Assembly (NCBI RefSeq): GCF_058153355.1
Contig: NZ_CM177019.1
DNA: 64,000 nt
Reading direction: 5' to 3' (one strand)
The position numbers were made by a program, and so were the translations under genes. Of the stretch, positions 21,747 to 31,940 are shown in pieces (the first letter of the stretch is position 1; the number at the start of each line of letters is the position of its first letter). The notes beneath the pieces are model-generated. The model saw only the letters and a program-made list of their open reading frames with translations, made no database searches and was not told the origin of the DNA.

Positions 21747-21785
21747 TAGTGTACTGGTAGCTGTGGAGCCAGGGGCGGTAGCGTG
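21747..21785 (+). promoter_or_regulatory. JUMPstart element containing ops (GGCGGTAG), RfaH-dependent antitermination site
   Basis: tagtgtactggtagctgtggagccaggggcggtagcgtg matches the 39-bp JUMPstart consensus; ops GGCGGTAG at 21774-21781; about 60 bp upstream of the first O-antigen gene. Confidence 0.8.
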
Positions 21786-21842
21786 CATTAATATTCACAA
21801 TATATTCTTTTAAATGTAAGCAGAATTAATCGAACCTAAATA

Positions 21843-23357
21843 ATGTCACGTAACAAAATAATCATAAAGAATACTATGTTTTTGGCAACAAGAACCTTAG
21901 TTTCTTTAAGTGTTTCATTTTACACAACAAGAATAGTTATACAACAGTTGGGGGCGGCAGACTATGGCTTATTTAATATCATTTATGGAGTTGTAACATT
22001 TTTTACATTCGTAGTCACCGCGATGAATGATTCTGTACAGCGTTATATTGCAATAGGTGTTGGTTCACAAAAAATATCGGTTATTAGAGATGCTGTAAAA
22101 AATAGTATGTTTATATTTGTTATATCTGCTTTCATATTGGCAGTATGTCTTCTTTTGGCAAGGGGGGTGATCATACATAATATTTTAAATATACCTAAAG
22201 ATTCTATTGAAAATGCAAGTGTGTTATATTTGGTTGCAGTATTTTCAATAACCATACTTATAATTCAGACGCCACTTAATGCGATGGTGTTAGCATACGA
22301 GAAAATGTCATTTTACGCATACATGATGATATTTGAAATGGTAGCTAAAATGAGTATGGCTTTGTTACTAACTTTACTGGAAAAAGATAAGGTCATTGTA
22401 TATTCAATACTTTTAGGTTCTATTTCTTTTTTTAACTTGTTGGTTTATTTATGCTACTGCTTGATATGTTTTAAAAAATCAATGTTTGGTGGGAGAATAA
22501 AATTTAGAGTGCTGAAAGAAATTTCAACTTTTTCATTTTGGAATATATTTGGTAATTTCTCTTACATGTGCAGAGTTCAGGGAGTGAACATTGTAATTAA
22601 TATGTTTTACGCTATAGCCGTGAATGCAGCATATGCGATTTCGATTACTGTTTTAAATGCAATTAATACACTTACGCAATCATTAATTACAGCATTAAGG
22701 CCTCAAATATTTAAATCATATGGCGAATGTGATTTAAAAAGATATAATCATCTAGTTCTCTTTGGTTCAAAATATACATTTTCAATATTGTTTCTGTTAA
22801 GTAGCCCTGTAATTCTATGTGCGGATGAGTTGTTAAAGATATGGCTTGATATTGTACCAGATTATACAGTTGAATTTGTGAGGTTGGTCATTGTTGTGGC
22901 TTTTATTGATAGTTTTTCATATAGCATGATTGCTGGTATTCAGGCTACGGGTAGGATTAAAACATATCAACTAGTTGTTAGTTTAATTGTCCTAATTAAT
23001 TTGCCGTTAACCTTTATTTTGTTTAAGGCAGGAAATAATGTTTTAAGTATGTTTTATCCATTTATTGTTACTGCCATTATCAATCAAGGTTTAAGGTTGT
23101 ATTTTATCTATATCAATGCAGGTTTTGATTATAAGAAGTATTTCACTGTTGTGATCTATCCTTGCTTGTTAGCTGTATGCTTATCGTTAGTGACAGATAT
23201 TTCAATTAAAAAAATGCTTCCATTTAACAGTGTTATTGATGTTTTAATTGTGTGTATTTTTATTTTTTCATTCAATACAATAATTTTTTATTGGGTTGTA
23301 GTTTCTAAAAAGGAAAAAAAATGGTTATTAGAAACCCTGAAAAGAAAAGTGAAATAA
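21843..23357 (+). CDS. wzx: O-antigen flippase (Wzx family)
   Basis: 504-aa strongly hydrophobic polytopic ORF; AT-rich; first gene after JUMPstart; start could be a downstream ATG. Confidence 0.7.
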   Translation: MSRNKIIIKNTMFLATRTLVSLSVSFYTTRIVIQQLGAADYGLFNIIYGVVTFFTFVVTAMNDSVQRYIAIGVGSQKISVIRDAVKNSMFIFVISAFILAVCLLLARGVIIHNILNIPKDSIENASVLYLVAVFSITILIIQTPLNAMVLAYEKMSFYAYMMIFEMVAKMSMALLLTLLEKDKVIVYSILLGSISFFNLLVYLCYCLICFKKSMFGGRIKFRVLKEISTFSFWNIFGNFSYMCRVQGVNIVINMFYAIAVNAAYAISITVLNAINTLTQSLITALRPQIFKSYGECDLKRYNHLVLFGSKYTFSILFLLSSPVILCADELLKIWLDIVPDYTVEFVRLVIVVAFIDSFSYSMIAGIQATGRIKTYQLVVSLIVLINLPLTFILFKAGNNVLSMFYPFIVTAIINQGLRLYFIYINAGFDYKKYFTVVIYPCLLAVCLSLVTDISIKKMLPFNSVIDVLIVCIFIFSFNTIIFYWVVVSKKEKKWLLETLKRKVK

Positions 23358-29927: not shown

Positions 29928-31033
29928 AATATGATTATATAATTATAGGTAGCGGTCTTTTTGGGAGTGTGTTTGCACATGAATTAGGGAAAATGAAAAA
30001 AAAGGTCAAGGTTATTGAGCGTCGTGATCATGTTGGTGGTAATGTATATTGTGAGAATATTGAAGGAATTAATGTTCATAAATATGGCGCACATATATTC
30101 CATACTAACGATAAAGAAATATGGGATTATGTAAATCAATTTGTAGAGTTTAATAGATATACAAATTCACCATTAGCTTTTTCAAAAGGTAAAATTTATA
30201 ATTTACCTTTTAACATGAATACCTTTAATCAACTCTGGGGGGCTATTACTCCTCAACATGCGAAAGAAATTATTAAAAAGCAAAGCGGTGAAATAAGTGG
30301 AAATAAACCAAGGAATCTTGAAGAGCAAGCTATTTCTTTGGTGGGACGAGATATTTATAATTGTTTGATTAAGGAGTACACTGAGAAACAATGGGGACGA
30401 CCTTGCACTGAATTGCCATCATTTATTATAAAACGACTCCCTGTTAGGTTTACATACGATAATAACTATTTTAATGACCAGTATCAAGGAATACCAGTCG
30501 GTGGTTACAATAAATTAATCGATGCATTATTAAATGGTATTGAAGTTCAAACATGCACTGACTATTTTGAAGAGAAGAAATATTGGGATTCTATTGCAAA
30601 GAAAATTATTTATACAGGGCCTATTGATAAGTTTTATTGCTATAAATTTGGAGCTTTGGATTATCGATCATTAAAATTTGAGCATGAATTACTGAATGTC
30701 GATAATTTTCAAGGGAATGCTGTTGTAAATTATATAGACAAAAAATTCCCATTCACTCGTATAATAGAACATAAATTTTTTGAATTTGGTGAACAGCATA
30801 ATACTCTCATTACTCGAGAGTACCCAAAAGAATTCGAAGAAGGCGATGAGTATTACTATCCTGTCAATGATGAAAAAAATATGCAAATCTATAAAATGTA
30901 TTATAATCTTTCTAAACAGGAAAGTAATGTGATTTTTGGTGGACGTCTTGCGGAATATAAATATTATGACATGCATCAAGTTATCAAATCAGCTTTAAAT
31001 GCATTCCGAAAAGAGGTACGTTTAGGTGAATAA
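29924..31033 (+). CDS. glf: UDP-galactopyranose mutase
   Basis: 369-aa ORF; FAD-binding N-terminus YDYIIIGSGLFGSVFA; length typical of Glf. Confidence 0.9.
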   Translation: MKYDYIIIGSGLFGSVFAHELGKMKKKVKVIERRDHVGGNVYCENIEGINVHKYGAHIFHTNDKEIWDYVNQFVEFNRYTNSPLAFSKGKIYNLPFNMNTFNQLWGAITPQHAKEIIKKQSGEISGNKPRNLEEQAISLVGRDIYNCLIKEYTEKQWGRPCTELPSFIIKRLPVRFTYDNNYFNDQYQGIPVGGYNKLIDALLNGIEVQTCTDYFEEKKYWDSIAKKIIYTGPIDKFYCYKFGALDYRSLKFEHELLNVDNFQGNAVVNYIDKKFPFTRIIEHKFFEFGEQHNTLITREYPKEFEEGDEYYYPVNDEKNMQIYKMYYNLSKQESNVIFGGRLAEYKYYDMHQVIKSALNAFRKEVRLGE

Positions 31034-31940
31034 AGAAGTAATCGCAGTTATTGTAACCTATAATAGAAAAGCATTATTGCTGAAAGTTATAGATGCTGTT
31101 ATTAACCAAAGTTATCCACTAAAAAAAATATTGATAATAGATAATAATAGTACTGATGGTACGGAGATGTTTATTTCAAATAGGCTCTCTGACGTGGTGA
31201 AGTATAAAAATACGGGGGATAATTTAGGGGGGGCTGGCGGGTTTTATAGAGGATTCATAGAGGCGGAAAAATATGGCTATGATTATCTTTGGTTAATGGA
31301 CGATGATTTTATGCCTACAGTGAATTGTCTTGAAATATTAATATCAAATAGCCCTGATGGTATTGTCCAACCTGTTAGATATAACTTGGATGAAACTTGT
31401 GCAGAGCTTTCTCCATTAACTTATGATTTATCTAACCCATTTAAGTTAAACCCTAAAGGTACACCATTAAAAAATTACTTAAATACAATTGGTAATAAAT
31501 CTGCGAAGGTAGATATTGAAGCTATTCCATTTGAAGGTCCATTGATTTCACGAAAGGTTGTTGAAAAAATAGGCTATCCAGAGCCTAAGTTTTTTATTTT
31601 TTGTGATGACATTGAATACGCTATTAAAGCTAAAAGAAAGGGGATTCCCATCCAGTGCAATCTTAAAGCCAAGGCATACCGCCTTTTGGTCAACAATCAA
31701 GGTAATGATCTTCTTTCCTGGAAAGGATATTTTATGCTTCGAAATCTTTTCTACCTGCATAAAACGTATGGGACCAATTTCCTTGTTAGACAAAAACCTA
31801 TCGTATTGGGATTAGGATATGCATTGTCGTGTGTATTGAAATGCAATTTTTCTCAACTTCCCGTTATATGGCGTGCTTTTTGGGATTCATCTACGTTAAG
31901 AAATACCGAAAAATTCAGGCCCGAAATGAGAAGTAAATAA
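31026..31940 (+). CDS. glycosyltransferase (GT2-like), candidate galactofuranosyltransferase
   Basis: 304-aa ORF with GTG start overlapping glf stop; VIAVIVTYNRK...ILIIDNNSTDGT, DDD motif; function inferred only from adjacency to glf. Confidence 0.55.
   Translation: MNKEVIAVIVTYNRKALLLKVIDAVINQSYPLKKILIIDNNSTDGTEMFISNRLSDVVKYKNTGDNLGGAGGFYRGFIEAEKYGYDYLWLMDDDFMPTVNCLEILISNSPDGIVQPVRYNLDETCAELSPLTYDLSNPFKLNPKGTPLKNYLNTIGNKSAKVDIEAIPFEGPLISRKVVEKIGYPEPKFFIFCDDIEYAIKAKRKGIPIQCNLKAKAYRLLVNNQGNDLLSWKGYFMLRNLFYLHKTYGTNFLVRQKPIVLGLGYALSCVLKCNFSQLPVIWRAFWDSSTLRNTEKFRPEMRSK

Follow-up and report, generated by a model that had tools for sequence, protein, structure and literature searches.

The O antigens of E. 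coli O124 and Shigella dysenteriae type 3 are, we assume, identical, and the sugar written as D-GlcpLA in the O124 structure is glucolactilic acid, presumably 4-O-[(R)-1-carboxyethyl]-D-glucose. The published O124 unit holds Galf, GalNAc in the main chain and D-GlcpLA, a glucose bearing a lactyl group, and a pyruvate ketal is absent from it; in the same 2019 review pyruvate groups are assigned to O112ac, O149 and O156, the list of lactyl groups includes O124, and O164 is described as carrying Glc where O124 has GlcLA, owing to a frameshift in wfeP (PMC7685785). To judge from the title of Senchenkova et al. (2006), in which two genes are confirmed for glucolactilic acid synthesis, the genetic involvement of two genes in making this sugar is already in the literature; that title concerns S. 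boydii type 17, whose genes may or may not be homologous to the O124 pair.

In the window, by which we mean the whole 64,000-nucleotide stretch of DNA analysed, nine same-strand open reading frames lie between galF and gnd. The features referred to below are as follows.

19366-20361, + strand: Und-PP-GlcNAc 4-epimerase gene (gne/gnu), upstream of galF (Pfam Epimerase family; RefSeq product name for the near-identical locus of E. coli VL7S7)
20604-21497, + strand: galF, upstream boundary (open reading frame; RefSeq annotation of near-identical locus)
21747-21785, + strand: JUMPStart-like element upstream of wzx; its ops octamer GGCGGTAG spans 21774-21781
21843-23357, + strand: wzx, O124/O164-family O-unit flippase (Pfam MatE; RefSeq name)
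23321-24703, + strand: FrhB-like Fe-S flavoprotein, 460 aa (Pfam FrhB_FdhB_N 36 bits, FrhB_FdhB_C 85 bits)
23615-23621, + strand: A7 tract inside the FrhB-like gene
24700-25836, + strand: PS_pyruv_trans-family transferase, 378 aa, intact (Pfam 136 bits)
25093-25098, + strand: T6 tract within the transferase coding sequence (shortened to T5 in the O164-like genomes TUM18780, TUM18530 and DETEC-C31)
25883-26887, + strand: GT2 (inverting) glycosyltransferase (Pfam GT2)
26884-27672, + strand: GT32 (retaining) glycosyltransferase (Pfam Gly_transf_sug; RefSeq GT32)
27746-28849, + strand: wzy, O124/O164-family O-antigen polymerase (Pfam EpsG; RefSeq name)
28890-29927, + strand: GT2 (inverting) glycosyltransferase (Pfam GT2; RefSeq start 28890, longest open reading frame from TTG 28860)
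29924-31033, + strand: glf, UDP-galactopyranose mutase (Pfam GLF 260 bits; TIGR00031 420 bits, exceeding its cut-off)
31026-31940, + strand: GT2 glycosyltransferase adjoining glf, overlapping it by 8 bases (Pfam GT2)
32022-33428, + strand: gnd, downstream boundary (open reading frame; RefSeq annotation of near-identical locus)

We regard it as virtually certain that these genes specify the O antigen of E. coli serogroup O124, made by the Wzx/Wzy-dependent pathway, and that the cluster is the O124 form. Over the whole galF-gnd interval (10.5 kb) it shares 99.8-100% nucleotide identity with five E. coli genomes in which RefSeq names wzx and wzy "O124/O164 family", and proteins identical to its own are recorded publicly for both E. 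coli and Shigella, an S. dysenteriae entry being exact or near-exact for the transferase protein. The O124/O164 and Shigella dysenteriae type 3 clusters share all nine genes, and their order, with the window. In the three complete O164-like genomes a one-T deletion (T6 to T5) splits the transferase gene, whereas the window keeps T6 and an unbroken gene; since the transferase reading frame is intact, the window is O124-type and not O164. The serogroup, which the original prediction had held could not be named from the sequence alone, is thus given by database comparison. The O124 cluster of enteroinvasive E. coli has been catalogued before, and nothing sets the window apart from the O124 form. 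The transferase gene is probably wfeP, a name that we infer from the position of the frameshift in the three genomes. Counting against this mapping, other isolates have a frameshift in the FrhB-like gene instead, GCA_902502995.1 for example combining a broken FrhB-like gene with an intact transferase; the window keeps A7 there, and A6 in natural variants (loci L016 and L017) splits the FrhB-like protein into 117-aa and 358-aa pieces.

The cluster was also expected to be an AT-rich, laterally acquired-looking locus lacking rml genes, and it is: the G+C fraction in 500-bp windows is 0.25-0.37 across 21500-31999, against approximately 0.47-0.55 in galF and the upstream colanic acid genes and 0.49-0.51 in the downstream gnd, and neither the open reading frame list nor the Pfam assignments hold an rml gene within the galF-gnd cluster. 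The segment originally singled out starts at 21747, which is the start of the JUMPStart-like element. The octamer GGCGGTAG alone is not above chance (2 occurrences against 1.25 expected); the position and surrounding sequence of 21747-21785 agree with what we take to be the JUMPStart consensus.

Both sugars predicted from gene content, GalNAc from the epimerase gene upstream of galF and galactofuranose from glf, are in the published unit, and the serogroup matched by wzx and wzy is therefore not one whose O unit has neither pyruvate nor Galf. GalNAc in the main chain fits an Und-PP-GlcNAc 4-epimerase, and Und-PP-GalNAc would arise from WecA and this enzyme, while UDP-Galf would be made by Glf. 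The CAZy family of a glycosyltransferase indicates the stereochemistry of the linkage (inverting or retaining), and the three GT2 enzymes and one GT32 enzyme match the O124 unit, in which three linkages are beta and one is alpha. We envisage that Galf-beta-1,3, Gal-beta-1,6, Glc-alpha-1,4 and Glc-beta-1,6 are built by these three inverting enzymes and one retaining enzyme, and that the O unit is then flipped by Wzx and polymerised by Wzy. The enzyme adjoining glf, whose best NCBIfam match is the galactofuranosyltransferase GlfT1 (90.6 bits against a cut-off of 330), is a candidate for Galf-beta-1,3-GalNAc, and the GT32 enzyme for the sole alpha linkage, Glc-alpha-1,4-Gal. The GT2 at 25883-26887 may be the enzyme that adds the terminal beta-1,6-Glc that becomes lactylated; homologues of it lie just after the transferase gene in Citrobacter (46% identity) and, at 41-54% identity, on E. 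coli plasmids.

It is very likely that the two unusual genes of the cluster, FrhB-like and PS_pyruv_trans, act in the formation of a lactyl ether and not of a pyruvate ketal. They are closely associated: (i) the first 4 bases of the transferase gene are also the last 4 of the FrhB-like gene; (ii) the order wzx, FrhB-like, PS_pyruv_trans recurs in all five of the other contexts (Citrobacter, Klebsiella oxytoca, Serratia, Acinetobacter and an E. coli plasmid), with a wzx homologue (35-59% identity) immediately 5' of the FrhB-like gene; and (iii) all nine long homologues scanned are FrhB-like/PS_pyruv_trans domain fusions, in both orders, two of them additionally bearing a glycosyltransferase domain. 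On E. coli plasmids, transferases that are 85-99% identical to one another adjoin either reductase type, FrhB-like or nitroreductase, which suggests one shared chemistry.

Among 79 Klebsiella K types, an "F420 hydrogenase" gene is found only in K66 and a "nitroreductase" gene only in K22 and K37, in each case tabulated beside a type-specific pyruvyl transferase; these three types and K8 are the four that have a transferase gene and yet no reported capsule pyruvylation. A redox partner beside the transferase would therefore seem to go with absence of the ketal (K22, K37, K66), in support of our reading. The correlation is not perfect, since pyruvate is likewise not reported for K8 although that type, too, carries a transferase gene. 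The K22, K37 and K66 capsules presumably carry lactyl ethers, and we take the sugar in K22 and K37 to be 4-O-lactyl-glucuronic acid, which has no O-6 hydroxyl for a 4,6-ketal.

The original prediction was instead of a pyruvate ketal on the O unit, with the Fe-S protein doing something unrelated or unknown. A ketal would fit the name of the Pfam family and the strength of the PS_pyruv_trans match, but we find this reading barely credible given that the published unit has a lactyl group and not a ketal (PMC7685785), that the two genes are translationally coupled, together in every context examined and repeatedly fused, and that the Klebsiella loci with a redox partner are reported as having non-pyruvylated capsules. 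As a ketal, then, the predicted pyruvylated sugar gives way to D-GlcpLA; in spirit it would survive if the lactyl group derives from PEP, as we infer. The accompanying remark that no role has been assigned to the Fe-S protein has been overtaken, in view of what the 2006 title says of two glucolactilic acid genes and of wfeP being behind the O124/O164 difference (PMC7685785).

The FrhB-like protein is the presumptive reductase that makes the lactyl group. It has an N-terminal ferredoxin-type 4Fe-4S motif, then the FrhB N and C domains, and then a strongly basic helical tail (residues 356-460). The Fe-S domain that had been predicted for it was recovered on profile search, with a Pfam Fer4 match of 21.3 bits (cut-off 21.1) when the N-terminal 100 residues were searched in isolation. 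Eight cysteines (C23, C26, C29, C65, C190, C217, C290 and C293) are invariant across 61 homologues, the first four, with the proline after C65, forming a CxxCxxC...CP motif. The AlphaFold model (pLDDT 87, pTM 0.88) matched F420-reducing subunits, the N-terminal half of Fsr, FrhB and HCAR in Foldseek; the top F420-reducing-subunit and FrhB chains gave E values of 2.6e-18 to approximately 1e-12 and TM-scores of 0.68-0.72 (target length), although identity to the structural matches is only 14-20%, and the protein scores approximately 26-48 bits with the NCBIfam FpoF/FrhB models, far under their cut-offs of 269-475. The 105-residue tail has 28 K/R against 4 D/E, and no family match was found for it.

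Overall, the best explanation, and in our judgement a probable one, is that the O124 cluster with these two genes produces glucolactilic acid by enolpyruvyl transfer and then reduction. The PS_pyruv_trans enzyme would move the carboxyvinyl (enolpyruvyl) group of PEP onto O-4 of the terminal glucose, and the FrhB-like protein would reduce the vinyl ether to the lactyl ether using a bound flavin, fed through two predicted 4Fe-4S clusters from host ferredoxin or flavodoxin; these donors are proposed because E. coli lacks F420. In this way the pair would functionally copy MurA/MurB through unrelated folds. Towards the enol-ether reduction route as such, whose sequence of steps, cofactor, electron donor and stage of action are all deduced, we lean somewhat more cautiously, and we found no biochemical test of this enzyme pair's chemistry in the literature. 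To our knowledge all characterised PS_pyruv_trans enzymes make ketals, and an enol-ether product, if true, would add a new reaction to the family's repertoire. Pvg1p and CsaB, for example, form ketals (PMC10435577), which speaks against the enol-ether route.

The same observation favors a scenario in which the transferase makes a 4,6-O-(1-carboxyethylidene) ketal on the terminal glucose and the Fe-S flavoprotein reductively cleaves C-O6 to leave the 4-O-(1-carboxyethyl) ether. O-4, where we take the lactyl group of O124 to be, is one of the two 4,6-ketal positions; HCAR, a structural neighbour in the FrhB family, presumably carries out reductive C-O cleavage (hydroxymethyl to methyl), and two Fe-S clusters, as predicted, would fit stepwise electron chemistry. 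We nevertheless consider prior ketal formation improbable, as the assumed 4-O-lactyl-glucuronic acid of K22 and K37 could not form such a ketal, the similar transferases (85-99% identity) beside either reductase type suggest a single chemistry, and the K22/K37 partner is a nitroreductase-family flavoprotein, for which fold the documented precedent is that an enolpyruvyl C=C is reduced by hydride. That precedent is FbiB of F420 biosynthesis, whose C-terminal nitroreductase-fold domain converts an enolpyruvyl group into a lactyl group (PMC6450877).

With regard to the stage of action, the substrate modified is probably the Und-PP-linked oligosaccharide, at the membrane, and not UDP-glucose. The same two steps could convert UDP-glucose to UDP-GlcLA for a dedicated glycosyltransferase, much as MurA and MurB work at the nucleotide-sugar level (UDP-GlcNAc), and the 2019 review does refer to UDP-GlcLA synthesis (PMC7685785), which implies a nucleotide-sugar substrate and is against the lipid-linked stage. 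Such a route seems to us unlikely, if less so than prior ketal formation. O164 has plain glucose at that position (PMC7685785), so that the transferring enzyme uses UDP-Glc; the simplest explanation is that glucose is modified after its transfer. Furthermore, CsaB, of the same family as the transferase, acts on a lipid-linked disaccharide analogue and Pvg1p on glycan acceptors (PMC10435577). The basic tail of the FrhB-like protein would suit docking to an anionic membrane, and there are proteins in which a glycosyltransferase, a pyruvyl transferase and an FrhB-like domain are fused.

Among known systems, MurB (UDP-N-acetylenolpyruvoylglucosamine reductase) performs a flavin-dependent enolpyruvyl reductase step. 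MurA (UDP-GlcNAc enolpyruvyl transferase) transfers the enolpyruvyl group from PEP (PMC10435577). What we propose for the window pair is alike in that a PEP-derived enolpyruvyl ether on a sugar hydroxyl would undergo flavin-dependent reduction to a lactyl ether. It differs in that the window pair consists of PS_pyruv_trans and FrhB_FdhB proteins, the reductase with predicted Fe-S clusters; Pfam found no MurA-type or MurB-type family in either, and the substrate, a UDP-sugar for MurA/MurB, would be O-4 of a glucose that is probably part of a lipid-linked oligosaccharide. FbiB likewise takes a PEP-derived enolpyruvyl group to lactyl with reduced flavin (PMC6450877), and the pyruvyl transferases of Klebsiella K22/K37 and of E. 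coli plasmids have a member of its fold family as partner, but it has another fold than the FrhB-like protein, no Fe-S clusters, and a cofactor precursor instead of a glycan as substrate.

The fold of the FrhB-like protein is common to FrhB, FpoF and the N-terminal half of Fsr, which depend on F420, and to HCAR and BciB, which depend on ferredoxin. HCAR is an FAD/Fe-S reductase from an organism without F420, and BciB, also working without F420, reduces a vinyl C=C bond. The window protein differs from this family in its extra basic C-terminal tail, its F420-less host and its polysaccharide-synthesis context. Klebsiella K66 (F420-hydrogenase-like gene and wcqF) and K22/K37 (nitroreductase and wclZ) place a transferase beside a redox gene as the window does, but these are capsule (Wzc/Wza-type) loci with other sugars; a K. 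oxytoca locus has wzx, FrhB-like and transferase genes in the window order (51%, 60% and 53% identity). Lastly, WcaK, the colanic acid pyruvyl transferase encoded in the same window (15306-16586), is a PEP-using enzyme of the same Pfam family as the O124 transferase, with approximately 22% identity over a partial alignment; it passes the NCBIfam equivalog model for WcaK at 933 bits, and its score with the CsaB model is 87 bits against 26 bits for the O124 transferase. WcaK makes a 4,6-ketal and, unlike the O124 transferase, has no adjacent redox gene.

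Nine open reading frames lie on the + strand between galF (20604-21497) and gnd (32022-33428). By Pfam, the first encodes a flippase of the MatE type; the second (23321-24703; the FrhB-like protein) combines FrhB_FdhB_N with FrhB_FdhB_C, and the third (24700-25836; the transferase) is a PS_pyruv_trans protein. Next come a GT2, a member of Gly_transf_sug that RefSeq places in GT32, a polymerase of the EpsG type, another GT2, a UDP-galactopyranose mutase and the last of the three GT2. The G+C of the cluster is 0.25-0.37 versus roughly 0.47-0.55 in the flanking genes, and no rml genes were found in the galF-gnd interval of the window. 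The original prediction of an AT-rich, laterally acquired-looking cluster that lacks rml and pairs a pyruvyl transferase with an Fe-S F420-dehydrogenase-like protein, plus glf, is thereby borne out. The left boundary that it proposed, 21747, is the first base of the following element:

21747-21785, + strand, JUMPStart-like element with ops octamer

Several gene junctions in the cluster overlap by 4-8 bases, including a 4-base overlap between the stop of the FrhB-like gene and the start of the transferase gene. Counted from the first ATG, as in the RefSeq annotation, the overlap of wzx with the FrhB-like gene (23321-23357) is 37 bases; the first 11 residues of the FrhB-like protein are missing in most homologues and, therefore, its true start may be further downstream. 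For the second GT2, the longest reading frame opens with TTG at 28860, RefSeq places the start at 28890, 30 bases further on (345 aa), and other gene callers give 349 aa (in locus L010).

When the 10.5-kb interval was used as a megablast query against 5426 complete E. coli genomes, all of it was found at 99.8-100% identity in five, and RefSeq assigns the wzx and wzy of these five to the "O124/O164 family". The O124 main chain is ->3)-Galp-(beta1->6)-Galf-(beta1->3)-GalpNAc-(beta1->, with a side chain of GlcpLA-(beta1->6)-Glcp alpha-1,4-linked to Gal, where GlcLA is glucolactilic acid, the lactyl ether of glucose (2019 E. coli O-antigen review, PMC7685785). The gene content fits this unit: Galf would come from glf and the GalNAc primer from the gene for an Und-PP-GlcNAc 4-epimerase that precedes galF, and the four predicted glycosyltransferases would account for the four linkages, with three GT2 (inverting) enzymes for three beta linkages and one GT32 (retaining) enzyme for the alpha linkage. 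GlfT1 is the best NCBIfam match of the GT2 adjoining glf, under the cut-off. The wzx and wzy comparison thus leads to a serogroup with Galf, and both the Galf and the GalNAc expected from glf and the epimerase gene are in the published structure.

The sole difference of O164 from O124 is that Glc replaces glucolactilic acid, a consequence of a frameshift in wfeP (PMC7685785). We took the absence of this frameshift as the criterion for O124 (PMC7685785), and we infer that wfeP is the transferase gene. Both the 378-aa transferase reading frame and the FrhB-like reading frame are intact in the window, which is why we assign it to the O124 form; the wzx/wzy family, the galF-gnd position and the intact wfeP all agree with an O124 cluster. 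In 3 of the 5 matching genomes (TUM18780, TUM18530 and DETEC-C31) the T6 run at 25093-25098 is one base shorter, and this T5 allele leaves two CDS in place of one pyruvyl-transferase gene. Public databases already have the exact cluster proteins, with E. coli and Shigella as sources. In public records, FrhB-like and transferase sequences identical to those of the window are labelled "Escherichia coli O28ac", and a near-identical FrhB-like protein is labelled "Shigella boydii". The assembly behind the latter (GCA_013847665.1, locus L010) has an O124-type cluster of the ordinary kind. Wrong species or serotype assignment among EIEC and Shigella isolates probably accounts for these labels. Earlier work had established the cluster, the serogroup and the structure of the O unit and had implicated the two genes genetically, and the finding is an ordinary one for the E. 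coli galF-gnd region. Little is at stake for this window itself, as the cluster is catalogued for the serotyping of enteroinvasive E. coli and Shigella and the structure of its O unit is published.

Single-base losses in two homopolymers, A7 (23615-23621) and T6 (25093-25098), break the lactyl module in isolates. The transferase alone is broken in one locus (L002); in another (L016, GCA_902502995.1) the FrhB-like gene alone is broken by an A6 allele with the transferase intact, making it a natural reductase knock-out; and in a third (L017) both genes are broken and the GT32 gene has an A8-to-A7 change. Homopolymer sequencing error is possible in single assemblies, but the split protein turns up in 44 indexed blocks of the assembly collection. 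The O164-like genotype probably arose more than once. That homopolymer frameshifts turn O124 into O164-like antigens is relevant to in-silico serotyping.

The transferase matches Pfam PF04230 (PS_pyruv_trans) at 136.4 bits against a cut-off of 25.3, over profile positions 1-279 of 280; a sequence search of solved structures gave no match to it. The original prediction expected a pyruvylated sugar, and on this point it did not hold: the published O124 unit carries a lactyl ether and no pyruvate ketal, and the serogroup is placed under the lactyl-group serogroups, apart from the pyruvate-group ones (PMC7685785). Other lactyl serogroups are O58, O69, O146 and O150, and ketal serogroups are O112ac, O149 and O156. 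A lactyl group without a ketal makes a ketal an unlikely end product of the transferase, and we rejected a plain ketal product on this ground. The window also holds a useful internal control, WcaK (15306-16586), a bona fide ketal-forming pyruvyl transferase of colanic acid synthesis. Encoded 8 kb upstream, it reaches 933 bits with its equivalog model and lacks a redox neighbour; over a partial alignment, its identity to the O-antigen transferase is only approximately 22%.

What, then, is the role of the FrhB-like protein? Pfam scores its N-terminal FrhB_FdhB domain at 36 bits and the C-terminal one at 85 bits. The Fe-S domain foreseen from the sequence is present on profile search of 23321-24703, as a Fer4 match on the N-terminal 100 residues just above cut-off (21.3 versus 21.1 bits), and eight cysteines are invariant in 61 homologues (a CxxCxxC...CP set of C23, C26, C29 and C65, plus C190, C217, C290 and C293). 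An AlphaFold model (pLDDT 87, pTM 0.88) retrieved FrhB-family chains in Foldseek at E 2.6e-18 to about 1e-12, including the ethanotroph F420-reducing subunits 8riu_B and 8rja_E, the N-terminal half of F420-dependent sulfite reductase, and FrhB; Arabidopsis 7-hydroxymethyl chlorophyll a reductase, HCAR (5dqr), matched at E 8.6e-14. Given that identity to these structures is only 14-20% and that NCBIfam equivalogs score far below cut-off (FpoF 48.3 versus 475; PRK09325 46.7 versus 269; TIGR03289 frhB 25.7 versus 331.5), we consider the protein a distant member of the fold and not an F420 enzyme. Hydrogenase or dehydrogenase partner genes were not found nearby, the neighbours being wzx and the pyruvyl transferase, and E. 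coli lacks F420 biosynthesis; an F420-dependent function was rejected for the same reasons. HCAR and BciB, which belong to organisms without F420, are examples of the FrhB fold operating with FAD, Fe-S clusters and ferredoxin; BciB reduces a vinyl group. The FrhB-like protein resembles this type in having the fold and the Fe-S ligands in a host without F420.

The C-terminal tail of the protein (residues 356-460; window 24386-24700) has 28 K/R and 4 D/E over 105 residues and matched no Pfam family. It is modelled with high confidence as long helices and is conserved among homologues, its invariant residues including a SQQGSFNHRHKG stretch; that this basic tail docks the protein at the membrane is speculation.

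The pairing of the two genes is not peculiar to O124. The order wzx, FrhB-like gene, PS_pyruv_trans gene is repeated in one locus each of K. oxytoca (capsule), Acinetobacter (K locus), Citrobacter (O antigen) and Serratia and on an E. coli plasmid, with identities to the window of 35-59% for wzx, 45-65% for the FrhB-like protein and 41-54% for the transferase. An exhaustive HMMER search for FrhB-like homologues returned 3432 representatives at E <= 0.001, of which 737 remain at E <= 1e-30. All nine long homologues scanned proved to be one polypeptide with PS_pyruv_trans and FrhB domains, in either order, two of them with an extra N-terminal glycosyltransferase domain and one with a hexapeptide-transferase domain; two fusions were confirmed as single reading frames on their contigs. 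Linkage is thus kept in five of five contexts and fusion in nine of nine long homologues scanned. Together with the Klebsiella capsules described below and the lack of a redox neighbour for WcaK, this is independent evidence that the two genes act jointly. The fusion proteins (P0150-P0158, P0165, P0199, P0261 and P0276; loci L011 and L012) are 830-1520 aa long where scanned, and some have a Glyco_tranf_2_4/GT92-like domain at the N terminus or a hexapeptide transferase domain; several are among the closest representatives of the E. coli FrhB-like protein (46-51% identity). For remote homologues (29-35% identity) the contigs were too short to show a partner, one gene lying between UDP-GlcNAc 2-epimerase and flippase genes. 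A Citrobacter contig (ENA ERZ13448127, L008) has all nine genes in the same order between galF and gnd (6703-16602 versus window 21843-31940) at 46-75% amino-acid identity per gene; it looks like an orthologous O-antigen cluster of another genus, and is a candidate for the donor lineage.

A second kind of redox partner also occurs beside pyruvyl transferases. The Klebsiella K22 and K37 capsules, we presume, contain 4-O-lactyl-glucuronic acid, and K66 is believed to have a lactyl sugar as well. A survey of 79 Klebsiella K types counted 35 pyruvyl-transferase genes, an "F420 hydrogenase" gene in K66 only and a "nitroreductase" gene in K22 and K37 only, each of these redox genes listed beside a type-specific transferase; its authors name K8, K22, K37 and K66 as the types with a transferase gene and a capsule reported as non-pyruvylated. 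Among the 5426 E. coli genomes, distant blastn with both genes revealed the pair on three plasmids but in no further chromosomal O-antigen cluster. Two small, IS-rich plasmids, pBDSF8-3_3 (NZ_JBTWTU010000003.1, 2739-10661; L009) and p30COLEC-2 (NZ_CP070932.1, 583-9635; L018), hold remnants of two neighbouring modules: (i) flippase, FrhB-like gene and pyruvyl transferase; and (ii) flippase, 341-aa nitroreductase-family gene, pyruvyl transferase and GT2. The plasmid transferases are 85-99% identical, beside either kind of reductase. This suggests that nitroreductase and FrhB-like reductases are interchangeable, although recombination between plasmid copies could also explain the shared transferases.

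The best-supported scenario, its chemistry being inferred, is a two-step enol-ether route. The transferase would move the carboxyvinyl group of PEP onto O-4 of the terminal glucose and the FrhB-like protein, as an Fe-S flavoprotein, would then reduce the vinyl ether to the lactyl ether. A second possibility is that a ketal is formed first and its ring then opened reductively. This would fit the O-4 substitution and HCAR-type C-O cleavage, but the nitroreductase partners and an acceptor that is glucuronic acid are harder to square with it. We favor the enol-ether route, and would place it on the lipid-linked O unit. Our reasoning for the latter is that O164 has plain glucose at the same position (PMC7685785), that CsaB acts on a lipid-linked analogue and that fusions with a glycosyltransferase domain exist. 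The same two steps at the nucleotide-sugar level, yielding UDP-GlcLA, are a live alternative, as the wording "UDP-GlcpLA" in PMC7685785 implies.

No biochemical study of the two-enzyme lactyl-ether module was found in the literature searched. This covered wfeP, glucolactilic acid, how lactyl ethers are made, and F420 proteins together with pyruvyl transferases, and yielded the title of a 2006 BBRC paper alone; a pyruvylation review did not discuss lactyl ethers. In that paper, going by its title, Senchenkova et al. reportedly confirmed two genes for glucolactilic acid synthesis in S. boydii type 17, so that the view of the Fe-S protein as having no assigned role has to be qualified by a genetic assignment; glycolactilic acids of O69/O146 are said to be the subject of Knirel et al. 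2017. The Senchenkova et al. paper is listed in the bibliography of PMC5643014, and the type 17 genes may be homologues of the pair in the window.

For annotation, a "pyruvyl transferase" beside a "coenzyme F420 hydrogenase" is better read as a two-enzyme lactyl-ether module rather than as pyruvylation plus a stray methanogen-like gene. The module is common and moves with a dedicated flippase among Enterobacteriaceae, Acinetobacter and plasmids. If our reading is true, glycan chemistry becomes readable from sequence across thousands of polysaccharide loci. Both protein families would gain a new activity through reconstitution of the module.

The second step has a direct chemical precedent in FbiB, whose nitroreductase-fold domain turns the enolpyruvyl group of dehydro-F420-0 into a lactyl group by reduction. 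The partners of the pyruvyl transferases in K22/K37 and on the E. coli plasmids belong to this fold family. MurA and MurB carry out the same chemistry with unrelated folds; Pfam gives only PS_pyruv_trans and FrhB_FdhB domains in the pair described here, which may, by analogy, work like MurA/MurB without belonging to them. We put at about even the chance that the FrhB-like protein is the founding example of a widespread class of F420-independent Fe-S flavoprotein reductases of glycan enol ethers and that, paired with or fused to a transferase that stops at the enolpyruvyl ether, it installs lactyl ethers on lipid-linked glycans, as a second, unrelated invention of MurA/MurB chemistry.
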